A program made the translations under genes and the position numbers. From assembly GCA_964618725.1 (NCBI GenBank), contig CAZUBK010000001.1, forward strand, positions 68,878 to 132,877: a stretch of 64,000 nucleotides of DNA. The letters are read 5' to 3'. The notes beneath the pieces are model-generated. The model worked only from the letters and a program-made list of their open reading frames with translations. It was not told the origin of the DNA and made no database searches. How positions within the stretch are numbered: position 1 is the stretch's first letter; each line of letters opens with the position of its first letter. This document shows, one piece after another, positions 3,686 to 17,911 of the stretch. Origin of the DNA: an uncultured Pseudomonadales bacterium (GTDB taxonomy: Bacteria; Patescibacteriota; Microgenomatia; UBA1400; Chazhemtobacteraceae).

Positions 3686-3741
3686 TTTGGTAAAATTGAG
3701 GATGTATCCGAAGCTATAAGGTGTAGCAACCAACACGGTAT

Positions 3742-3813
3742 GGGTTCGTAGCTCAATGGTAGAGCAATTCCCTCTTAAGGAAGCGGTTGTGGGTTCGACT
3801 CCCACCGGACCCA
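3742..3813 (+). tRNA. tRNA-Lys (anticodon CTT)
   Basis: Acceptor gggttcg/cggaccc, anticodon loop ctcttaa, T-arm gtggg ttcgact cccac. Confidence 0.8.
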
Positions 3814-3976: not shown

Positions 3977-4285
3977 ATGAAGAGTGACTTTTGTGAGTTG
4001 GCGAGAAGCGTTTACGAGCTAATAGATACAGAGCTAAAAGGAGTTGAGTCAGGAAAGTTGGATGTCATTGAGGCATATCCAAAATTAGTTGTCTCTTGTG
4101 AATTTCTTCGATATATTCGGGGAGAGTTTTTTAGTTTTTCACGACCGCCTCTTTTGGACTGCCAAAAAGAACTGTATCGACTGGAAGATGAAGTATCTGG
4201 ACGAGTTGAACAACTAAGAAAGAAGCTCGATTTGAGGGACCCTAGAACGAAGTATTTTTTTAGATCTGACGAAGAGGCTTTTTGA
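3977..4285 (+). CDS. Hypothetical protein (102 aa)
   Basis: ORF only; no motif recognised. Confidence 0.35.
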   Translation: MKSDFCELARSVYELIDTELKGVESGKLDVIEAYPKLVVSCEFLRYIRGEFFSFSRPPLLDCQKELYRLEDEVSGRVEQLRKKLDLRDPRTKYFFRSDEEAF

Positions 4286-4322
4286 CTGAATTCCCTTGTG
4301 GATAGGTCTATGATATTAATAG

Positions 4323-5510
4323 ATGAGTATGAAGAGGATAGAAGGGGATAATCATTTAGCAAATGTTTTGACCGAGTTAAGAAACCGGGCGGAAGTGTAC
4401 TTTCCTGGTGCTAGATTTGCCTCTGTATATTCCCCTACTGAGAAAGAGATGGTGCTTGTTCCTATTGCAGAGGCTTTGGTTTCACAGTTTGGACATGGAG
4501 TCGATTATGCTTCTGGGGTGTTTGAAGGAAGTAGCGCAATGATAAATGAGAGAACAGGTGTCCCCCATGTAATTTTGCTTGAACAACGAAATAGGAGGTT
4601 ATTTCACCGATCTCTGCCAGCAAGGGGATACGAGGCCCCTGTAAGCGAAGAGGCATTTGCATTGGCAACACTTAATCTTATTGTGGCGAACGGCCTAGAT
4701 CTTTTTAAAAATCCTAATGGAGAAGAAGGTTTTGTGAGGGCTTATATTAGGCCCACTATGTATCCGGCCACTTTGGCTGGATATGGAATCAGTATGCGAA
4801 AGGAATATCCCGTTGATGCTGGCATTATTGCCTGGGCGTGGCCAGATTACTTGGATCATACTTTGGCAACTCGCGGGGGTGTTTGCGCGATCACAGGACA
4901 CCAAAGACTCTTTAAGGTAACTGGTAAACACGCTAGTAACTACGGAGCTGCTGTGAAGGACGGTGGATTGGCGAGGTCACGTGAAGCGGACGAGCTGATT
5001 TATCTAGCACCATATTTAATAGACAAAGATGGACATCTGTATTGGGATGATCCAAACAACTTGGAGGCAAAATTAAGAGATGGTGTAATTTGCGATGGAC
5101 CCGGAGAGGAGTGTGTTGCACTGACGAAAGACCAGAAGACTTTGATTTATCCACCAATGACAACAAATAGATTGGGAGGAACGGTATTGCAATACATTAT
5201 TGATCATATGGCCAAGAATGTGGGACTCGAGACCAGAGAGGGTGAAATTACTTTGCATGATATAAGGACGGGAAAGTATGCAGGGTTGGCGATGGTTGGC
5301 AATGCGGTCAAAGTGACACCGATGAGGCAGATTAACTTGCAGAGTCCACTGGGATGGGAAGAAAAAATTCGTTTCTTTGCTGAAAATAACGTGCCGGAGA
5401 AACTCGATGAGTTGAGAGTTAGATGGGAAAACGAGACGAGAGGACTTGTCGATCCAAGTCATCCTAGTCTGTTGACTTCGGTCGAGGATTTCAATCTTGA
5501 TGTGGTTTGA
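4323..5510 (+). CDS. Fold-type IV PLP-dependent aminotransferase-like protein (BCAT/class IV-like)
   Basis: 395 aa. Runs of similarity to IlvE read by eye: GVFEG...ILLEQRNRRLFHRS (compare FEGIR...HREHMQRLHDSA), AYIRP, and KHASNYGAAVKDGGLARSREADELIYL (compare KAGGNYLSSLLVGSEARRHGYQEGIALD). Confidence 0.55.
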   Translation: MSMKRIEGDNHLANVLTELRNRAEVYFPGARFASVYSPTEKEMVLVPIAEALVSQFGHGVDYASGVFEGSSAMINERTGVPHVILLEQRNRRLFHRSLPARGYEAPVSEEAFALATLNLIVANGLDLFKNPNGEEGFVRAYIRPTMYPATLAGYGISMRKEYPVDAGIIAWAWPDYLDHTLATRGGVCAITGHQRLFKVTGKHASNYGAAVKDGGLARSREADELIYLAPYLIDKDGHLYWDDPNNLEAKLRDGVICDGPGEECVALTKDQKTLIYPPMTTNRLGGTVLQYIIDHMAKNVGLETREGEITLHDIRTGKYAGLAMVGNAVKVTPMRQINLQSPLGWEEKIRFFAENNVPEKLDELRVRWENETRGLVDPSHPSLLTSVEDFNLDVV

Positions 5511-5656: not shown

Positions 5657-7147
5657 ATGAAGAAAATGAAACTGAACATAGAAGGGAAAGTGGTGAGCCT
5701 GGGTTACTCGGAGCACTTTGCAAATCTGACACGAATGAACCAGAGCCTTAACTTTGGGGCGAGGGATAATTACATCAGTAGGGGGCTTCTTTATGTTGAT
5801 GTGCCGGAGATAGTCGGAATAACTGGGGCATGTGAGAATGTTGATACTTTGTTTAAAGTGGGTAACCGGATGGGGTTACCGCTTTTTTTTAGCCAAACGG
5901 GGCAGTTGGCGCTAGAGCAGACACTCCAGTCATTCCCGGGAGTCTTTACTGTGATTCATTCAGGAAGAGATGAGGAGATAGAGGATGAGCGACATTTAAG
6001 ACAATTTCGCTTAACCGAGGAAGAGTTTGATTGTACGATGGCTGGGATGGCAAGAGAGACGTATGACGAGGAGGTCATGTTTGAGGCGCTTTTGTCACAC
6101 ATTCAGGCTGCGGTACAGGCGATGATAGCAAGAGTGGTGGAGGACCGGGGAGAAGAACTGGAGCAAGTGTATGGTCGAGAGGTGAAAGCACTGAAATATG
6201 CCACCAAGAATGATTTCTTACGGATCAATTACGAAGATGCTGTTAACTTATTGCGAGAGAATGGATTTAAAAAGTTATGTTTTGGAGACGACTTGGGATC
6301 AGCTGAGGAAGCCAGAGTAGTGGAGATACTAAACAAAGGGAAGCAATTACCAGTATTTATTATGCGGTATCCCAAGGAAATAAAGTTCTTCAACATGAAG
6401 GTATCAGAAAAGGACCCTCGGGTAGTGCTGTCAGCAGACTTGGTCTTTCCTTTTGCTGGAGAGGGGGTCGGGAGTGCTGTCAGAGAGCACGATTATGAAC
6501 GATTAAATAAAAGATTGCTTGAGTCAACGATGTATCGGCTTCATATAGAAAGAGGAGGCAAGTATGGGGACTTTGGCTGGTACTTAAATATTGTCAAGGA
6601 CAAGGGAAGTAATCCTCATGCCGGATATGGTATAGGCAATGAAAGAGTAATGCAGTATATCCTCGGCGAAACTGATATTAGACGGGCGTCGATGTTTTCG
6701 TTACTAAATAGACAAACGGGAGATTGGGATGAGAGACATTACGGCCAAGCGGCGGTTTTGCAACAGCCTCAGCTTAAGATACTTCTTTCCATAGGTAAGA
6801 AAAGGAACAAAAGGATATTACTGCCGGAGATAAAGAGACTAATAGGAAGTGAGAGAGCAATTATTTATGCAACACAGAAGACGCATGAGTATCTTGAGAT
6901 GGAAGGAGTCAGAAGCCTACTAGTACATAAAATCTCGCAGTTGGACCATACACCTAATATTGCAGATCTGCTGAGCCGAAGAGTGTTTGACTTAATCGTT
7001 AATATTCCAACTCGAACTAAAGTACGGACAAGTGTAGAGTTTACCGACGGTAAATTAATCAGAAAGGGAGCGGTAGACTTGGGAATAAAGCTAATTACTG
7101 ATCCTGAGGTGGCGATCATGACATTGCGGAATTTGGCAAGAGAATAA
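5657..7147 (+). CDS. Class IIb aaRS-like catalytic core (AsnRS/AspRS-type, AsnA-like) fused to a C-terminal MGS-like domain
   Basis: 496 aa. Motif 2-like HSGRDEEIEDERHLRQFRLTEEEF, FIMRYPKEIKFFNMK, DLVFPFAGEGVGSAVREHDYERL, and motif 3 AGYGIGNERVMQYILGETDIRRASMF. No anticodon-binding OB domain. C-terminal ILLSIGKKRNKRILLPEIKRL...ATQKTHEYLEMEGV...DLIVNIPT resembles the MGS-like fold of CarB/PurH. Confidence 0.6.
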   Translation: MKKMKLNIEGKVVSLGYSEHFANLTRMNQSLNFGARDNYISRGLLYVDVPEIVGITGACENVDTLFKVGNRMGLPLFFSQTGQLALEQTLQSFPGVFTVIHSGRDEEIEDERHLRQFRLTEEEFDCTMAGMARETYDEEVMFEALLSHIQAAVQAMIARVVEDRGEELEQVYGREVKALKYATKNDFLRINYEDAVNLLRENGFKKLCFGDDLGSAEEARVVEILNKGKQLPVFIMRYPKEIKFFNMKVSEKDPRVVLSADLVFPFAGEGVGSAVREHDYERLNKRLLESTMYRLHIERGGKYGDFGWYLNIVKDKGSNPHAGYGIGNERVMQYILGETDIRRASMFSLLNRQTGDWDERHYGQAAVLQQPQLKILLSIGKKRNKRILLPEIKRLIGSERAIIYATQKTHEYLEMEGVRSLLVHKISQLDHTPNIADLLSRRVFDLIVNIPTRTKVRTSVEFTDGKLIRKGAVDLGIKLITDPEVAIMTLRNLARE

Positions 7148-7198: not shown

Positions 7199-9103
7199 AT
7201 GGCAAAAATTGAAGTCTTAAAGACAAGAGAAAGCGAATATGCACAGTTAAAGTCAATAGAGAGGGAGATCAGAATTACTGGCGGATTCTGGCGATCTATA
7301 TTAGATACAAATCTTGAAGTAAGCTTACTCAGACAATATGAGGAGTGCGAGAAAACAGGAAGAATAGATAACTTTCGTCGAGCGGCGGGAATCCCGGTAG
7401 CGAGAGAGGAAAAAAGACAGATTGCTCCCGACTCGGATGTATACAAATGGGTAGAGGCGGCGAGTTATGCTTTGAGAGATAAAGAATTACCAGGACTGAC
7501 TGATAAGTTGAATGAAGTAATAGATTTGATTGTGGCAGCCCAATCGGAAGACGGGTATCTTAACACGATGTTTGTGGGGGAAAGAGTAAAAAGTCGCTTC
7601 AGTAATCTGCTTTGGGATCATGAGCTATATTGTGGAGGTCATCTGATTCAGGCGGCACTGGCGCATTGGCGAGCGACGGGTGAGACAGAATTACTAAATG
7701 TTGGACTGGCATTCGCCAATCATATCTGTGAGTACTTTGGTGAGGAAACACATCAAGGTACCTGTGGCCATCCCGAGATTGAGATGGCGTTGGTGGAACT
7801 ATATCGGGAAACGGGAGAGACAAAATATCTTAATCAAGCAGTTTTCTTTATCAACCAACGAGGGCGAATGCCACCCATCTTGAACGGGAGTAGTGGCATT
7901 CAGGACCATTTACCGATAAATGAACAGACAGAAGTAGCCGGTCATGCGGTAAGGCAATTGTATTTGATGGCGGGATTGGCCGATCTTTATATGGAGACAG
8001 GAGATGGGGCAATACTTTCAGCAATAGAGCAACAATGGCTGGACCTAACAAAGAGACGAATGGCAATTACAGGAGGGACTGGGTCAAGATATGCGGGAGA
8101 GTCATTTGGTTTACCATATGAGTTGCCAGACAGGACAGCTTACAATGAGACGTGTGCAGCAATTGCCAGCTTCATGTTTGCCTGGCGATTGTTACATATT
8201 AGGCCAAATGCGAGGATTGCCGATTTGATGGAGCAGACGCTATACAACGGCGTTCTGGCGGGTGTATCGCTAGACGGACAAAGTTACTTTTATGCGAATC
8301 CTCTAGAGCATCCAGGAGACGATAGTAGTATTCGAACATTTTATGGCAGTAATCAGAGGACGAGAGAGATGTGGGATCAGGTTCCTTGTTGCCCGCCTAA
8401 CTTGGCGAGAATTCTAGCCTCGTTACCTGACTATTTGTATACCAATACGCAAGGGACGATATATTGCCACTTGTTTGCTCAAAGTGAGGCCACATTTGAA
8501 ACAAAGAAGGGAAGGATTGGCCTTTCGCAGAGAACCAATTACCCTTGGGACGGGGAAGTGGAGTTGAGAGTTGAGACTGTGGACCCTGTTGAGCATGAAA
8601 TCGCACTTAGGATGCCTGGGTTTGCAGGCAAGGCGGTGATGGAGATAAATGGGGAAGAGCAAGAAGTTGTTATTGGAGAAGATGGATATGTAAGATTAGT
8701 TCGAGTCTGGCAGTCGGGTGACATTATTACTCTACAGATGGAGTTGTTAGTCAGAAAGATGGCTTCACACTCGCATTTGACGAGTCATGCCGGAAGTATC
8801 GCCTTAATGCGAGGACCGTTAGTTTACTGCCTTGAAGGAGTAGATCATTCCGACTGTGATATCTTTGATTTGGTGCTAGAGAAGACACAGGTTTTTGAGG
8901 AGGAATTTCGACCAGAGTTATTGAAAGGCATAATGACTCTTACGAGCACTGCCCTACTGAGATCCAAGTCTCCCGGACTGTATTTCCCGATTGATGGGCA
9001 AGAGGGAGAGAGTAAAGAGGTGGCGATAACGGCAATCCCCTATTTTGCCTGGGCGAATCGTGGCAGAAGTTCGATGAAGGTGTGGTTACCGTTGAAAACT
9101 TGA
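7199..9103 (+). CDS. Glycoside hydrolase family 127-like (DUF1680, beta-L-arabinofuranosidase-like)
   Basis: 634 aa. FWR, NFRRAAG, QLYLMAGLADLY and the Cys-rich VPCCPPNLARIL segment resemble the GH127 Zn/Cys active-site region. Confidence 0.5.
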   Translation: MAKIEVLKTRESEYAQLKSIEREIRITGGFWRSILDTNLEVSLLRQYEECEKTGRIDNFRRAAGIPVAREEKRQIAPDSDVYKWVEAASYALRDKELPGLTDKLNEVIDLIVAAQSEDGYLNTMFVGERVKSRFSNLLWDHELYCGGHLIQAALAHWRATGETELLNVGLAFANHICEYFGEETHQGTCGHPEIEMALVELYRETGETKYLNQAVFFINQRGRMPPILNGSSGIQDHLPINEQTEVAGHAVRQLYLMAGLADLYMETGDGAILSAIEQQWLDLTKRRMAITGGTGSRYAGESFGLPYELPDRTAYNETCAAIASFMFAWRLLHIRPNARIADLMEQTLYNGVLAGVSLDGQSYFYANPLEHPGDDSSIRTFYGSNQRTREMWDQVPCCPPNLARILASLPDYLYTNTQGTIYCHLFAQSEATFETKKGRIGLSQRTNYPWDGEVELRVETVDPVEHEIALRMPGFAGKAVMEINGEEQEVVIGEDGYVRLVRVWQSGDIITLQMELLVRKMASHSHLTSHAGSIALMRGPLVYCLEGVDHSDCDIFDLVLEKTQVFEEEFRPELLKGIMTLTSTALLRSKSPGLYFPIDGQEGESKEVAITAIPYFAWANRGRSSMKVWLPLKT

Positions 9104-11457: not shown

Positions 11458-11973
11458 TTATCTGTATATCGCAATTAGTTGTCTGACTATCATCTCACTC
11501 CACTTCTCGATATGGTCTGACGAGAAGTCAAACCAAACACGATAGAAATTGTCGCGAGCAATTTTTCTTGTTCTTCCTACTTCTGGATCTTGGAGATAGA
11601 TGAAGTTGTCATCTAATCCTGCAACAACGGAATAATGTCCGTCCGCAACTTCATCTTCAGGATAGTCATAACGCCCGCGGGTAAACCAATTGATGATTAC
11701 GGGAACGCCTTTCTCTAGCCACTTTTGAAGATCGTTGAACTTTGAGTTGTTTTTGACTTCCACTTTGAAGCCTAATTTTTCTGCAGCTTGTTTAATTGAT
11801 TTTGCATCTACGCCAAGACCAACCTGGCGATTACACATTTGGGATAGCTCTGCCTCACTTATGTCTAAATTGTAGTAATCGGTGACAATCTTTAGTGATG
11901 CAGGACCACAATACCCACCGTGAAGGGTTTCTTGAAAAGGCTTAACAGATAAGAGGATGGACCTATTAAACAT
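11458..11973 (-). CDS. Stand-alone papain-like C39-family peptidase domain protein
   Basis: 171 aa. GGYCGPASLKIV (nucleophile Cys) and DGHYSVVAGLD (His) resemble bacteriocin-processing C39 / C39-like peptidases. Confidence 0.55.
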   Translation of the reverse strand: MFNRSILLSVKPFQETLHGGYCGPASLKIVTDYYNLDISEAELSQMCNRQVGLGVDAKSIKQAAEKLGFKVEVKNNSKFNDLQKWLEKGVPVIINWFTRGRYDYPEDEVADGHYSVVAGLDDNFIYLQDPEVGRTRKIARDNFYRVWFDFSSDHIEKWSEMIVRQLIAIYR

Positions 11974-11976
11974 AAA

Positions 11977-12945
11977 CTATCTTGTTTGGGTAAATAGATC
12001 TTCGATGATTTCGTCGAGGGGCACGCCTTGAATATCAATATCGTCGATGGGAAATTTATCGGCTAACTTGGCAATAATTTTACTTTGAGAAGCTTTGGGA
12101 ACTTCAAGGGTATATGAGAGTTCTTTGCTATTTATGACTTGGCCAAGTTTGCTTAATTTCTCTTCTTTGATGGGTTTCGTAAAGGTGACGGTTAGATATT
12201 TTTTGTCTTGGTAATGGTGAGATAGTTTTTCTAGGGTATCATCAAAGACTATTTGACCATGGTTAATGATAATGGCACGATCAGAAACACTTTCTATGTC
12301 GGCCATTTCATGACTAGTGAGAATGATCGTTGTTTGCTCTTCTTTGTGGAGGTGGCGGAGAAAGTTTCTAATTCTCCTCTTGGAAACGACGTCTAAGCCA
12401 ATGGTTGGCTCGTCGAGGAATAAAAGCCTGGGTCGGTGGAGAATGGCGCCAATTAGTTCCATCTTTAAGCGTTGTCCGAGTGAGAGTTTTCTAACGGGGA
12501 TATCGAGCTGCTCCTTAACGTCGAGCAACTCCGTCATTTCATCAAGGCGGGTTTGGAAAGTCTGGTCTGGAATTTGATAGATAGTTTTGAACAGCTTGAA
12601 GCTCTGCATTGCCGAAAGATCCCAGGACAAGCCACTTTTATTTCCCATTACTAAGGCAATTTGACGCAGATATTCTCTTTTCCTTTGGTTTGGAGTAAAT
12701 TCAAGTACTTTTATTTCCCCGGAGGTTGGATACAAAAGACCAGTGAGCATTTTAAGAGTCGTTGTTTTGCCGGCTCCATTAGGACCAAGGAGCGCTACTG
12801 ATTCCCCTTGATTGATCTGGAAATTTATATGATCAACGGCAGTAAGTGGTTTACTTTTTGGAATGAAGATACTTTTGAGTACTCCTTGCTTGACTGGGAT
12901 TTTATAGGTTTTAGTTAGATTTTTTATACTGATAATTGGTGTCAT
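11977..12945 (-). CDS. ABC transporter ATP-binding protein (ABC-2/DrrA-like)
   Basis: Walker A GPNGAGKTT, signature LSLGQRLKMEL, Walker B LLFLDEPTIGLD, H-loop SHEM. Confidence 0.85.
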   Translation of the reverse strand: MTPIISIKNLTKTYKIPVKQGVLKSIFIPKSKPLTAVDHINFQINQGESVALLGPNGAGKTTTLKMLTGLLYPTSGEIKVLEFTPNQRKREYLRQIALVMGNKSGLSWDLSAMQSFKLFKTIYQIPDQTFQTRLDEMTELLDVKEQLDIPVRKLSLGQRLKMELIGAILHRPRLLFLDEPTIGLDVVSKRRIRNFLRHLHKEEQTTIILTSHEMADIESVSDRAIIINHGQIVFDDTLEKLSHHYQDKKYLTVTFTKPIKEEKLSKLGQVINSKELSYTLEVPKASQSKIIAKLADKFPIDDIDIQGVPLDEIIEDLFTQTR

Positions 12946-12947
12946 TT

Positions 12948-13775
12948 TTAGGATGAAGCTGATGTGTAATGTTTAAGCGCGAAGTTCCAGGCTTTGATTT
13001 TAATGAAAAGAAAGATAATTGTGGCAAACAAAACAAGCAGAAGCCAGATAGGGCTGGTGGTACGACCTAATACATACGATGTTGTGAGCGCGGTATGGGC
13101 CAAGAATGGAACAGCTGTTAAGCCTAGGAGGATTATAGAATTAGGGAATGCTTCGAGAGGGATGGCGTCGCTGCCAAAAAAAGCGACTTGATAAGAAATA
13201 CCCACTAAGCCTTTTGATTCACCTGTCCAAAAAGTTAGGAGTGTAACAAGAAACTGAAAACAATGAATGGCAATTTGACCTAATATTAGGGTCAAAACTC
13301 CATAGAATACTCCAAGTGGGGTGATACTAAAATCAAGATGTTTAATAACAAGGTATAGGAGTGGAAGGGTGGCGGGCCACATTTCAAAGACTAGAGTAAA
13401 AAGATTGATTTTTTGGAAAGTGACATACCAAAGCGATGGTAAGGGCTTGCTCAATATCAGGTCAAGCTTGCCGCTTTTAATGTCTTCGCCTAATCGTTCT
13501 AGATTGGTCATGCTCCAAACCCAGATAAGGTAGAAGTTAAACTGAACTATTAAAGTGAAAAGAAGAGCTTCGGAATAGCGGTATCCGGCGATGTTTTGAA
13601 TCCGGCCAAAAAGTGCAGAAAGAAAAATCAGATACGTAATCATGTAGGTGATCGTAGAGGCCAGTCCTCCCCAGTTATTTAAACTGTAAGCTAGTGACTC
13701 TTTTAAAGAGAAAAGAGTGTTTGCTTTAAGAATCGCTAGGCGAATACTAATTGGTTCAAATACCGATTGCTTCAT
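12948..13775 (-). CDS. ABC-2 family permease
   Basis: 275 aa, about six TM helices, immediately upstream of the ATPase. Confidence 0.6.
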   Translation of the reverse strand: MKQSVFEPISIRLAILKANTLFSLKESLAYSLNNWGGLASTITYMITYLIFLSALFGRIQNIAGYRYSEALLFTLIVQFNFYLIWVWSMTNLERLGEDIKSGKLDLILSKPLPSLWYVTFQKINLFTLVFEMWPATLPLLYLVIKHLDFSITPLGVFYGVLTLILGQIAIHCFQFLVTLLTFWTGESKGLVGISYQVAFFGSDAIPLEAFPNSIILLGLTAVPFLAHTALTTSYVLGRTTSPIWLLLVLFATIIFLFIKIKAWNFALKHYTSASS

Positions 13776-14538
13776 AGCGTTTTAATCCAAGTCGCCAGAT
13801 AAAAAAGCTAAATGGTAATAGAACGAGGATCCAAACAGCGGCGGAAATGAAGGCAGTCAGAATATCGTAATTAAAACTTCTGGTCTGCATGATGATTGAA
13901 GGAAGGTACGCCACCGCGGGCAGAGGAGAAAGTAGCAAAAGATGTTTGATCTTGTCGGAAAAGAAAGTGATGGGAATGAGAACACCACTAAAAACGCGTA
14001 TGAAGTGGGAGGCAACGTTTTGAAGATGCTTTGCTTCAGGACTCCAGAATGTAAGACTGCCAACAAGTAAGTTGAAAATGAAACCAATGATGAAGGCCAA
14101 GGAAATACTCAAGAGAAATAATATAAACTGAATTAGAGAGAAGCTGGGCAGGAAAATAAAACCAACAGACATAAGTAGGATAGACATAAACATGACTATC
14201 CCCCTGGTGCCCAAGAAAGAAGTGTATAGGAAAATAACTGGATGAATGGGACGAAGTAGGTGGGAGCTTAGAGTTCCTTCTTTTATCTCACTATTAAGGG
14301 CTCTAGTGAAACGAAGCGATTCAGCATCGACTAATCCTTGGACGCCATTAGCGATGAGGAAATAGGAAATGAGAGACCCTACGCCCGTAGACGCTTGCTT
14401 GCCGATTAGACTCCAGAGAAAAATAACTCCCCCTAAATAAATGGCTTTGTTTAAAATCATCAGCCAAACTTCACTCCGGTAATTGGTGACCTGAGAAAGA
14501 CCAAAAATAAGACTGTCTTTGTATGTGGAAAGTTTCAT
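13756..14538 (-). CDS. ABC-2 family permease
   Basis: 260 aa multi-TM protein that overlaps the start of the next permease. Confidence 0.6.
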   Translation of the reverse strand: MKLSTYKDSLIFGLSQVTNYRSEVWLMILNKAIYLGGVIFLWSLIGKQASTGVGSLISYFLIANGVQGLVDAESLRFTRALNSEIKEGTLSSHLLRPIHPVIFLYTSFLGTRGIVMFMSILLMSVGFIFLPSFSLIQFILFLLSISLAFIIGFIFNLLVGSLTFWSPEAKHLQNVASHFIRVFSGVLIPITFFSDKIKHLLLLSPLPAVAYLPSIIMQTRSFNYDILTAFISAAVWILVLLPFSFFIWRLGLKRYEAIGI

Positions 14539-14585
14539 CTCACCTATTATAGCTTTTCACCCTTAAAGGATGATGTCGTTTTGGC

Positions 14586-14699
14586 TTGGCCCGACGCAGT
14601 CGGTCCAGCCTGAAGCTGGACAAAAAAATCGCGCGCAAAGCCGAGCGTAGCTCGGAGTGAGCCCCGCTAAGCGGGACGAACGGAAAATACAAAAGTGGC
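14586..14699 (+). repeat. Copy 1 of a ~114-nt multi-hairpin GC-rich repeat
   Basis: Near-identical to 16554..16667. Hairpins ccgac-gca-gtcgg, gtccagc-ctgaa-gctggac, ccgagc-gta-gctcgg, cccgc-taa-gcggg. Sits in an AT-rich background. Confidence 0.7.
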
Positions 14700-14947
14700 T
14701 GCCGCGTGGCATCAGCGGAGGGGGGCGCTGAGCCAGCGGCGAGCTCAATTTCCTTGGAAAAATGTAATAACATCTCTAAAATAGAGCACCCATCCGGACT
14801 TCAGGCTTTTGGCCGGACCGCTCGCCCAGGCGGTGTGGGTGGAGATTTTGAATCCAGAGTCTAATGGGCTCTTGAAGTTAAAAATATTAACCAATGTTAC
14901 CCTAAGTTATCGACTTTTATAATTAGTAGTATACTGACTCTCAGATT

Positions 14948-16150
14948 ATGAAAGAGATAGATAACCCGTTTGCTCCAGGTGCCGGCAAACTTCCTCCTGA
15001 ACTTGCAGGTCGTGATGAGAACTTGGAAAAAGTGGATGTGATTCTGCATAGATTCAAGAATGGAAGGGGCGATAGAAGTTCATTATTTCTAGGACTTCGG
15101 GGTGTGGGCAAAACAGTTTTGCTTAATACTGTAAACAAGAAGGCATTAGAATTGGGATATCACACTGTTTACGTAGAGTCTCCTGAAGAAGAATCACTAG
15201 GCAGCTTGCTTATTCCTGGCCTTAGAAAAGTATTATTACAACTAAGTGTCCTAGAAGGAGCAAAACAAAAGCTAAATATTGCTTTTAGTGCCTTGAGATC
15301 TTTTGCGTCTATTTTTGATATAAAAATAGGTGATGTTGGAATAAAAGTTACCAAATCTATGGGAGTAGCTGATAGTGGAATCCTAGATCAAGATTTGATT
15401 GATCTATTAGTTTCCGTAGGAGAAGCAGCACAAGAAGCCAATTCGGCAGTTGGGATACTGATAGATGAGCTTCAATACGTTAAAATAGAAGAACTTGCAG
15501 CGCTCTTCGCAGGCATTCATCGCGTGGGCCAGCTTCAATTACCCTTAGTTTTATTCGGTGCAGGTTTGCCCCAGTTGGCAGGCATGTCAGGAAACGCAAA
15601 ATCATATGCGGAGCGCTTATTTGACTTCCAAGAAATTGGCCCACTTGAGGAAGCAGACGCAGTCATTGCAATTAAAGAACCTTTAGAAAAAGAGGGAGTA
15701 AGCATTGAATCGGAAGCTTTAAAAGAAATAGTTAGAGAGACTGAAGGTTATCCATATTTCCTTCAGGAATGGGGTGCTCATACCTGGAGATCTGCAGAAA
15801 GTTCACCAATAACACTTGGGGATGTAATGGGGGCAACTAAAGACACCATCTTTACACTCGATAAAGGTTTTTTTCGTGTCAGATTTGATCGGTTAACCCC
15901 AATTGAAAAGGACTATTTACGAGCCATGGCTGAGTTGGGAAGGGGCCCTCACCGCTCTGGTGATATCGCCACTAAACTTGGTAGAACTGTAAATGAAGTA
16001 GCACCATTCCGGTCAAAACTTATTGTGAAAGGTATGATTTTCTCGCAACAACACGGAGATACTGCTTTTACTGTTCCTAAATTCGATGAGTACATGAAGC
16101 GAGCAATGCCTACTTTTACTCCTCATCCGATAAAGAAAAGAGTTACGTAA
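14948..16150 (+). CDS. AAA+ ATPase (archaeal-type/Orc1-like P-loop NTPase with probable C-terminal winged helix)
   Basis: 400 aa. Walker A LRGVGKTVLL and Walker B ILIDELQYV. Confidence 0.55.
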   Translation: MKEIDNPFAPGAGKLPPELAGRDENLEKVDVILHRFKNGRGDRSSLFLGLRGVGKTVLLNTVNKKALELGYHTVYVESPEEESLGSLLIPGLRKVLLQLSVLEGAKQKLNIAFSALRSFASIFDIKIGDVGIKVTKSMGVADSGILDQDLIDLLVSVGEAAQEANSAVGILIDELQYVKIEELAALFAGIHRVGQLQLPLVLFGAGLPQLAGMSGNAKSYAERLFDFQEIGPLEEADAVIAIKEPLEKEGVSIESEALKEIVRETEGYPYFLQEWGAHTWRSAESSPITLGDVMGATKDTIFTLDKGFFRVRFDRLTPIEKDYLRAMAELGRGPHRSGDIATKLGRTVNEVAPFRSKLIVKGMIFSQQHGDTAFTVPKFDEYMKRAMPTFTPHPIKKRVT

Positions 16151-16395
16151 GAACGACTCTACTTTTTCAAAGATATTCTTGTGTGACCTACATTTGTGTT
16201 CTATTCCAAGTTTAGTTGCTTTTTTTCGGCCCGGTAGTTTTGATTAGAGTGATATAATAGGATCACAATTTGGGGAGGTAGGTCCCAACTTCATACCTGT
16301 GAAGCTACTAAGTGAGACGCTTGCTTTCTTGAAGAGGAACTGGCGTCTTTTGTCGTTTTATTAATTAACACAGAACAGAAAGGAGGTGGAAGCAG

Positions 16396-16545
16396 ATGAC
16401 GACACAGGAAATGGCAGTAGAGCTTACTAAAGCTTGGATTGCGCAAAGAGGTTCTTTGTCAATAGCATCACAAGCGGCTACTGACATATCTTTAGTTTAC
16501 AAAGCAATGGTGAAAGCAATAAATGAGAGCTATAAAGAAGAATAG
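16396..16545 (+). CDS. Small hypothetical protein (49 aa)
   Basis: Strong RBS aaaggaggtgg 6 nt upstream of the ATG. An extended -10 (tgatataat) lies ~140 nt upstream. Absent from the ORF track (under 60 aa). Confidence 0.35.
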   Translation: MTTQEMAVELTKAWIAQRGSLSIASQAATDISLVYKAMVKAINESYKEE

Positions 16546-16553
16546 AATCAGGT

Positions 16554-16667
16554 TTGGCCCGATGCTGTCGGTCCAGCCTGAAGCTGGACAAAAAAATCGC
16601 GCGCAAAGCCGAGCACGGCTCGGAGTGAGCCCCGCTAAGCGGGACGAACGGAAAATACAAAAGTGGC
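16554..16667 (+). repeat. Copy 2 of the ~114-nt multi-hairpin repeat
   Basis: Same orientation as copy 1; differs only in hairpin loops (acg vs gta, gct vs gca) and one wobble. Confidence 0.7.
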
Positions 16668-16681
16668 CGCCCCATGTCTAT

Positions 16682-17788
16682 TTAGGCTAGTTGTTCCCAC
16701 GGTAGATGGGCAGGTCCGAAATGGCCATAACTTGCGGTTTGACGATAGATGGGTCGGCGAAGGTCAAACTTGGTGATGATACCTCCCACTGATAAGTCGA
16801 GTAAATTCCAAGCAAAATCGTTAATGACTTTGTCTGACTGGTTCGAGGTACCAAAAGTTTCAATTGCCTTACCTACTGGTTGACGATGGCCGATGGCATA
16901 GGCCAATTGAACTTCACAACGGTCGGCAAGTTTCTGGGCCACTATATTCTTGGCGATATAACGCGCGGCATAAGCAGCAGAGCGATCAACCTTAGTCGGA
17001 TCTTTACCGGAAAAGCAACCGCCGCCGATTCGACCCATTCCACCATAGGTATCGACAACAATTTTGCGGCCAGTAACCCCGGTGTCAGAATACGGGCCAC
17101 CGATTTCCCAGGCGCCTGTACCATTGAAAATGACTTGGGATGGCTTAATGGCAGGTAAATGATATTCCTCTAGTAAAGGGGAGACAATGAGTCTGAAAAG
17201 TTGGTCTTTAACTTCCTCTTTCTTAACTTTAGGATCATGAGGTTTGGCAAGGACGACGGTAACGACTTGCTCTGGCTCACCTTTTTGACTGTACGAGACG
17301 GTTACCTGAGACTTGCCGTCAGGACGAAGATAGGTTAGCTCATTTTGGGCTAGTTCATCGAGGCGGCGGACAAGCGCGTGCGAAAGAGAAATAGGGAGAG
17401 GCATGAGCGACTTTGTTTCATTGGTGGCATAACCAAACATCATTCCCTGATCTCCCGCCCCGCCATCATCTACACCAAGGGCGATATCAGGAGACTGTTG
17501 GTGGATATAGACGTTGAAATTTGTTTCAGGACCAAAATTAAAGATTTTCTGAGTATAGCCGAGGTCATTAATGACAGCCTTAGCGATATTGACATATTGG
17601 AGTGGCTTGGGGCAGGTGATCTCACCGGCTAGCACCAATTTATTTGTAGTAACCAGGGTCTCACAGGCGACACGTGATTGAGAATCAACGGTGAGAGCGG
17701 CATCAAGAATGGCGTCGCTTACTTGATCACAGATTTTGTCCGGGTGACCGGCACAGACTGACTCCGATGAAAAGAGGGAGTATTGCAT
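16682..17788 (-). CDS. metK: S-adenosylmethionine synthetase
   Basis: [40 protein letters not shown], and a 368-aa length typical of MetK. Confidence 0.9.
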   Translation of the reverse strand: [368 protein letters not shown]

Positions 17789-17911
17789 TTTAGTTTTCCT
17801 CTAATTAATAAGGCTTGTCATTTTGGCACCGCGTCCTGCATAAGGCTCGGTTGCCGGTCCCGTTGAGGGACTCTCTTGACAGTGAAACCATAGTAACATA
17901 ATGGGGAGTGA
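17789..17911 (-). promoter_or_regulatory. Structured metK leader (candidate SAM-responsive riboswitch-like element)
   Basis: Minus-strand leader CUGUCAAGAGAGUCCCUCAACGGGACCGGCAACCGAGCCUUAUGCAGGACGCGGUGCCAAAAUGACA. P1 is UGUCA/UGACA and encloses two hairpins. CAAGAGAG, GGCAACC and GGUGCCAA resemble S-box blocks. The RBS GAGGAAAA follows. Confidence 0.3.

Follow-up and report, generated by a model that had tools for sequence, protein, structure and literature searches.

The stretch of DNA analysed here (the window; 64,000 nt, positions 68,878 to 132,877 of contig CAZUBK010000001.1, assembly GCA_964618725.1) contains two non-coding direct repeats of 126 nt, hereafter R. The left copy (R1, 14583..14708, + strand) and the right copy (R2, 16551..16676, + strand) are identical at 117 of 126 bases (93%), start 1968 nt apart, and enclose a module of 1.84 kb whose coding content is an AAA_16 ATPase gene and an open reading frame of 49 aa (ORF49), nothing else. 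On the left side, the module is flanked by a minus-strand operon (11458..14538) that encodes, according to Pfam, two ABC-2 permeases, an ABC ATPase and a C39 peptidase. The ATG (14538) of the ABC-2 gene that opens this operon is preceded, at a distance of 45 nt, by R1, which is thereby placed between divergent gene starts. R2 fills the gap between the stop codons of the convergent ORF49 (16545) and metK (16682), starting 5 nt past the former and ending 5 nt from the latter. The right flank (16682..17887, - strand) consists of metK (16682-17788) and an S-adenosylmethionine (SAM)-I/IV riboswitch (17781-17887). A first-pass annotation, made from the letters alone, had described two near-identical copies of 114 nt in the same orientation, one in the 5' region of the ABC-2 operon and one by the metK stop, each with four GC hairpins; all of this was recovered here, with the repeat extended to 126 nt.

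Each copy of R is a string of four short GC hairpins, CCGAC-gca-GTCGG (h1), GTCCAGC-ctgaa-GCTGGAC (h2), CCGAGC-gta/acg-GCTCGG (h3) and CCCGC-taa-GCGGG (h4), located in R1 at 14591-14603, 14603-14621, 14641-14655 and 14663-14675, respectively. The ends of R are able to pair as a 7-bp closing stem. Differences between the copies affect 9 positions of 126 (C/T, A/T, GTA/ACG, T/C, G/C, G/A), and the longest exact runs common to both are 48 and 50 nt. The GC content of the two copies is 61% and 60%, as compared to 44% for the window and 40% for the DNA between the copies. Outside R, the window holds 12 GC hairpins where 11.9 are expected, i.e., chance level. Because hairpins outside R are no more frequent than by chance and R has 61% GC in a 44% window, R looks like an import rather than a feature of the host genome.

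No third copy of R was detected in the window, neither by blastn nor with a covariance model built from the two copies (filters off), and none was present in about 167 kb of sequence from relatives. Pattern scans of the GTDB species genomes likewise returned no R copies, only a single chance match in a coding region of Phycisphaerales. Full-length R was absent from Joint Genome Institute (JGI) metagenomes, viral contigs, plasmids and phages, and a peptide search with an open reading frame spanning R2 found no trace of R in peptide space. A multi-copy family of small RNAs or of miniature inverted-repeat transposable elements (MITEs) is not supported, as no collection that could be searched yielded a third copy. 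On the present data the earlier suggestion of a small RNA family thus did not hold, as only two copies were found and relatives of the ATPase gene lack the repeats.

The DNA bracketed by R1 and R2 is a mosaic accessory segment of three parts. Directly after R1 follows a non-coding extension (ext, 14709..14874, + strand; 56% GC) that is absent from the closest ATPase locus, has no match in plasmids or phages, and carries a promoter-like site (14754-14782) directed at the ATPase gene. An inverted partial copy of R reported from ext (at about 14795) scored 28 against a shuffle mean of 22 (sd 3.5, maximum 39), which is chance level. The ATPase gene unit (14875..16150, + strand; coding sequence 14948-16150, 400 aa) belongs to a family of more than 8000 homologs (phrog_6841), the top 120 of which are 56-84% identical. 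At 55-84% identity, the protein occurs across the Candidate Phyla Radiation (CPR), Proteobacteria, Actinobacteria and Chlamydiae, and homologs of about 55% identity reside on 99 plasmids from Rhodococcus, Sphingobium, Pseudomonas, Protochlamydia and others. No solved structure was matched by sequence, and membership in a defence system was rejected, as PADLOC gave merely a marginal mad8 match. The closest loci (L004, 84%; L005-L008, 71%; L009, 66% identical) each carry the ATPase gene as a solo gene among unrelated neighbours, with no flanking repeats and no R, and nucleotide similarity to the closest of them (L004) begins only at 14875. In all homologous loci inspected (L004, L005-L009, L084, L085) the gene stands alone within long non-coding flanks and has no conserved partner. 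The ATPase gene is a wandering solo gene, and R is not part of it, because relatives up to 84% identical are solo, sit in unrelated contexts and lack R. A link between the repeat and the ATPase gene itself is therefore not supported.

Some of the ATPase homologs have neighbours of their own worth recording. In L005 and L006, the 71%-identical homolog lies beside an IS30-like transposase with 22-nt inverted repeats and also beside a C39-like peptidase (4105-5179 and 7433-8083); a C39 peptidase (11458-11973) is found 3 kb from the ATPase gene in the window as well, which could be a coincidence. On a Pseudomonas oryzihabitans plasmid (L084), a 29-nt direct repeat (3730-3758 and 5838-5866, 76% identical) flanks the ATPase homolog, probably by chance.

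The third part, the ORF49 unit (16151..16550, + strand), comprises a 245-nt upstream region and the coding sequence (16396-16545) preceded by an AGGAGG ribosome-binding site. ORF49 has no homolog among 5.8 billion proteins searched and no Pfam match, only a weak match to phrog_4937. It was nevertheless called as a gene in an independently assembled contig (L001, see below). In the region before it (16151-16395), an extended -10-like TGATATAAT is present together with a long GACGC...GCGTC hairpin that has a T-run behind it; this could be a small RNA or a leader.

The host is, by its sequence, a bacterium of the CPR/Microgenomates type. The nearest MetK relatives are about 75% identical, and the named matches are Microgenomates and Shapirobacteria. 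In these relatives synteny is lost and no R-like element lies downstream of metK, and R2 was accordingly rejected as a conserved 3' element of this gene. The riboswitch upstream of metK (43.2 bits) is just over the Rfam gathering score of 41.1, in a CPR/Microgenomates-type genome. Neither an integrase nor a transposase nor a repetitive extragenic palindromic (REP)-associated tyrosine transposase (RAYT) is encoded in the 64-kb window, there was no Y1_Tnp match among its open reading frames of at least 140 aa, and the search for known RNA at R found no tRNA or tmRNA.

The 3' half of R leads beyond this locus. Its h3-h4 core (R1, 14641..14676; R2, 16609..16644) reads CCGAGC-gta-GCTCGG, 6 nt, CCCCGC-taa-GCGGGa in R1. 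A scan of metagenomes for the h3 plus h4 pattern returned 62 contigs, about 45 of which represent an unrelated high-GC repeat. A unit of 36-39 nt, CCGAGC-TNA-GCTCGG, 6 nt, CCCCGC-TNA-GCGGGG, was found at five low-GC loci (39-49% GC; L022/L056, L034, L043/L078, L065, L071) and at one locus with 59% GC and 7-nt spacing (L023). The estimated number of chance matches of this twin hairpin in low-GC DNA is about 0.004. We provisionally define the unit as CCGAGC-NNN-GCTCGG, 6 nt, CCCCGC-TNA-GCGGGG, 36 nt in total, in low-GC genomes. Both R cores fall within this definition, as all stems except the last h4 pair match, the spacing is 6 nt and one loop is TAA; against the unit consensus the R core agrees at 26 of 28 positions in addition to the spacing. 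Hairpins of the GC-TNA-GC form occur in the window inside R only and were absent from about 180 kb of the nearest Microgenomates relatives, and a general abundance of such hairpins in the lineage was rejected on these grounds.

In these CPR-like contigs, where the unit is sporadic, twin hairpins are located in protein-coding genes as well as next to RNA genes. In a SecA gene (L022:998-1033, same in L056) the unit lies in frame in the zinc-finger motif and interrupts the conserved C-terminal motif, which reads IVG[RPAERGVRRAKLG]RNDPCPCG in L022 as compared to KIGRNDPCWCG in L010; identity between the two SecA proteins is 57%, and L022 no longer gives a SEC-C match in Pfam. An amidase (GatA-like) gene carries the unit in frame in a C-terminal loop (L071:11948-11985), with 47 residues across only 37 profile positions, and a LytR_C protein carries it in frame in its N-terminal region (L078:9866-9924, same in L043). 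A further twin hairpin is positioned in a 16S leader, 30 nt upstream of the 16S start (L034:5653-5691), another abuts the 5' end of a tRNA-Pro gene (L065:3238-3273), and the spacer between tRNA-Thr and tRNA-Tyr in L023 (7852-7989) is filled by a four-hairpin string that the R covariance model matched over its full length with 25.5 bits. Judged by this distribution, the twin hairpin appears to behave as a tiny selfish palindromic insert. Full-text literature searches on the hairpin sequences and on palindromic inserts in CPR bacteria returned no description of such a unit.

Two further observations came from the same scan. The high-GC repeat, (G)CCCCTCACC-CCGAGCTYCGCTCGG-8/9 nt-CCCCGCNNNGCGGGG-CGAGG, occurs in about 45 of the loci L021-L082 (e.g., L046:1631-1788, L058:1002-1286, L035:397-1077) from soil and peat metagenomes, with some contigs holding two to three copies. 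The repeat is REP-like and has two stems in common with R, a match forced by the search pattern. On the minus strand of L071 (10380-11800), two GIY-YIG (UPF0213-like) open reading frames alternate with genes for tRNA-Met and tRNA-Asp and with GC-TNA-GC hairpins; one of the frames has an internal stop, and GTCATCCC / GGGATGAC hairpins border at least one.

We propose that R is a composite palindromic element of the kind of REPs and bacterial interspersed mosaic elements (BIMEs) or of Rickettsia palindromic elements (RPEs), not an RNA gene, and that its two copies are junctions of the 1.84-kb module that arose by recombination between R copies; we put the probability of this reading at roughly 50%. 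R itself is best read as a composite of four short GC palindromes, selfish or neutral DNA, with a copy of the 36-nt twin-hairpin unit as its 3' half. The two copies most likely represent recombination junctions of an inserted module. An ancestral R copy would have been located between metK and the ABC-2 operon, and incoming DNA that carried one R copy would have recombined with the resident one in a Campbell-type integration. Such an event would have left ext, the solo AAA_16 ATPase and the orphan ORF49 as 1.84 kb that now separate metK from the ABC-2 operon. Since 48 and 50 nt of exact identity suffice for homologous recombination, the same repeats could let the module loop out again. Recombination between R copies is favoured because the repeats are in direct orientation, exactly bound the sole clearly accessory segment and have no recombinase nearby. 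The suggestion that R forms att-like boundaries of a small inserted module stands to this extent, with a foreign, mosaic cargo and a wandering ATPase between the copies; a recombinase, as true att sites would imply, is missing from the window. The sequences next to R cross-match weakly (AATCA|R2 with R1|..ATCAG; GTTTT|R1 with R2|..TATTT), which fits two separate R insertions followed by recombination between them.

Several points weigh against this proposal. The flank cross-match is merely 4 nt long, was noticed post hoc and depends on where R is taken to end. A third full 126-nt R was found in none of the collections, that is, the window, GTDB species genomes, JGI metagenomes, viral contigs, plasmids, phages and peptide space, and any mobility of R as a unit is therefore hypothetical. 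No empty site was seen among the closest MetK relatives, which at about 75% identity have lost synteny, and the window lacks integrase, transposase and RAYT genes. Moreover, the search pattern fixed the stems of the twin-hairpin family, and therefore only spacing, loop form and rarity count as independent evidence for homology over convergence.

That R is instead a cis-acting structured RNA, with R2 ending or stabilising the convergent 3' ends of metK and ORF49, R1 serving as a leader or insulator before the ABC-2 operon or the ATPase gene, and both copies kept since they are functional, appears rather unlikely to us. R2 does fill exactly the gap between two convergent stop codons, and it has a weak terminator-like site on the minus strand. 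However, no R hairpin is followed by a U-run, an A7/T7 tract is misplaced relative to h2 whichever strand is read, a 3'-end element would have no role at R1 between divergent gene starts, and metK of relatives lacks such an element. Pairing of the two copies is complete on the plus strand (58/58 stem cells, 100%), where the three stem differences are G.U wobbles, as compared to 94.8% on the minus strand, where they become mismatches. Yet all three are one-sided wobble changes and none is two-sided (compensatory), with two sequences giving no statistical power, and the 47 internal unpaired linker bases do not differ at all between the copies, which selection on structure alone does not predict. 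The excess of differences in loops hinges on the single triple change in the h3 loop (Fisher 0.026 by sites, 0.29 by events). The initial observation that differences fall in loops or create wobbles is thus true as stated, but, given invariant linkers, one triple change in h3 and no compensatory change, it is correct yet weak evidence for a maintained structure. Folding z-scores against shuffled sequences are modest, with plus-strand values of -1.3 and -1.6 and minus-strand values of -1.8 and -3.2 (the last for R2), although the 298-nt sequence of R1 and ext reaches about -3 on both strands. No Rfam family overlaps R at gathering thresholds across the whole window, and a search of 14400-16800 at E-value thresholds likewise led to the rejection of a known RNA family. 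The best sub-threshold matches, to Glutamine-II on the minus strand of both copies, have 18.6 and 15.2 bits as compared to a gathering score of 33, and a further one, to a long non-coding RNA model, was judged meaningless. With no Rfam match at threshold, no compensatory change and z-scores of -1.3 to -3.2, a known or conserved structured RNA is not supported.

R could also be a MITE or REP cluster of about 126 nt that transposed independently to two nearby sites, in which case its position on either side of the ATPase module would be fortuitous or due to a local hot spot. Its size, its GC palindromes and its tight fit beside stop codons are typical of REP, enterobacterial repetitive intergenic consensus (ERIC) and MITE sequences, and its core belongs to a family that inserts at many types of sites. 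We nonetheless regard two independent insertions as unlikely, as the 64-kb window has just two copies, which enclose its single obviously accessory segment, target-site duplications are missing at both (flanks match only if cross-paired), there are no convincing terminal inverted repeats, the window has no transposase or RAYT gene, and the other collections searched contain no copies. The REP/MITE-like label is therefore retained for the palindromic make-up of R and for its h3-h4 core, which matches the twin-hairpin insert of other low-GC contigs, and given up where it implies a multi-copy MITE family. The reads bear on both insertion and assembly. In an independent check with k=31 Logan contigs from run SRR12113420, the same sequencing run as the window, the left junction of R1 was contained in L083, which ends at window position 14628, its right junction in L001 (1927 nt, equal to window 14670-16596), and the junctions of R2 in L001 and L002, the latter ending 44 nt beyond metK. 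The contigs break exactly 30 nt into the shared 48- and 50-nt stretches of R, as contigs do at repeats; therefore all four junctions are present in the reads, in which R behaves like a repeat present at least twice. This k=31 graph is compatible with the tandem arrangement but also with an empty site, ABC-2 followed by R and metK, alongside a separate circle of 1968 bp made up of R, ext, ATPase and ORF49, or with integrated and excised molecules side by side: L001 corresponds exactly to the module and has both its ends within R, L002 and L083 terminate within R as well, and the start-to-start spacing of the copies equals the size of the circle. That the tandem order is only an assembly choice is, however, very unlikely. 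With 9 of 126 positions different and no shared run longer than 50 nt, assembly at k of at least 55 or reads of 150 nt would separate the R1 and R2 variants and link their flanks unambiguously, and we take the tandem arrangement as real for this reason. The window is also part of a 325-kb contig, and ATPase homologs elsewhere are located on chromosomes or large plasmids, none on 2-kb circles.

Taken alone, R is a curiosity of this locus, where two palindromic repeats mark an insertion, and it belongs with small palindromic repeat elements already known. It could gain interest from its host. CPR bacteria (Patescibacteria) have tiny genomes and yet exchange accessory genes with few recognisable mobile-element enzymes, and a solo gene of such wide distribution enclosed by hairpin repeats points to a possible simple, homology-based route of gene gain and loss. 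The twin-hairpin family, with members inside essential genes of CPR-like bacteria, is the lead that deserves more attention. As a tentative extension, we suggest that twin hairpins may be undescribed mobile inserts of CPR-type bacteria, recognisable by the GC-TNA-GC apex and the 6-nt gap, that land in frame in essential genes (SecA zinc-finger motif, GatA-like amidase), in rRNA leaders and in tRNA spacers, and that composites such as R might provide portable homology for the capture and loop-out of solo accessory genes in very small genomes without a local recombinase. If true, their presence in secA and gatA-like genes would make them a CPR counterpart of the RPEs, selfish DNA that reshapes essential proteins, and would alert annotators to a repeat origin of some odd protein insertions in these lineages.

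Among known systems, three were rejected as models for R on direct reading of the sequence, namely integron attC sites, diversity-generating retroelements (DGRs) and dif-like sites. R resembles attC and Vibrio cholerae repeats as a structured direct repeat of about 120 nt after the open reading frames of a cassette-like unit, but it has no RYYYAAC / GTTRRRY core sites and forms four separate hairpins instead of one long imperfect hairpin. The locus also differs from an integron, as it has no IntI gene and no array, and the neighbours are housekeeping and operon genes. A template and variable repeat pair of a DGR does not apply, since there is no reverse transcriptase, both copies are non-coding and the differences are C/T, A/T, GTA/ACG, T/C, G/C and G/A, where a DGR would show mismatches at template adenines. 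MITE structure is not apparent either, with ends that give only a closing stem of about 7 bp, flanks unmatched within a copy and a cross-paired match of 4 nt. Closer in arrangement are attL and attR, direct repeats of about 100 nt that, as here, precisely delimit an accessory segment next to where a housekeeping gene has its 3' end; R differs from them in having no integrase or excisionase in or near the segment, a target that is not a tRNA or tmRNA gene, and repeats that are 93% and not 100% identical.

In composition, R is most like the REPs and BIMEs of enterobacteria and pseudomonads, which are likewise non-coding strings of short GC palindromes in intergenic gaps by stop codons that fold equally on either strand. 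REPs and BIMEs are able to act as recombination substrates and as stabilisers of 3' ends. REPs are present in tens to hundreds of copies and are associated with the RAYT (Y1) transposase. R differs in having two copies in 64 kb (filters off), so that a high dispersed copy number is not seen within the window, and no RAYT is encoded there. REPs further carry a GTAG or CGTC head (PMC3733652), which is missing at the hairpin bases of R; a GTAG is confined to the loop of h3 in R1. The twin hairpin, on the other hand, is shorter than an RPE, has a GC-TNA-GC apex, and is assigned mobility from its distribution only, and R itself is intergenic. RPEs are reportedly about 100-150 nt long and specific to Rickettsia, and double-hairpin elements, or GC clusters, are said to be mitochondrial. 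Both are palindromic units of small size whose insertion sites include intergenic DNA, spacers of RNA genes and, in frame, protein-coding genes. The twin hairpin is like the RPEs in this respect, as it occurs in frame in SecA and in an amidase, and R carries one such unit.

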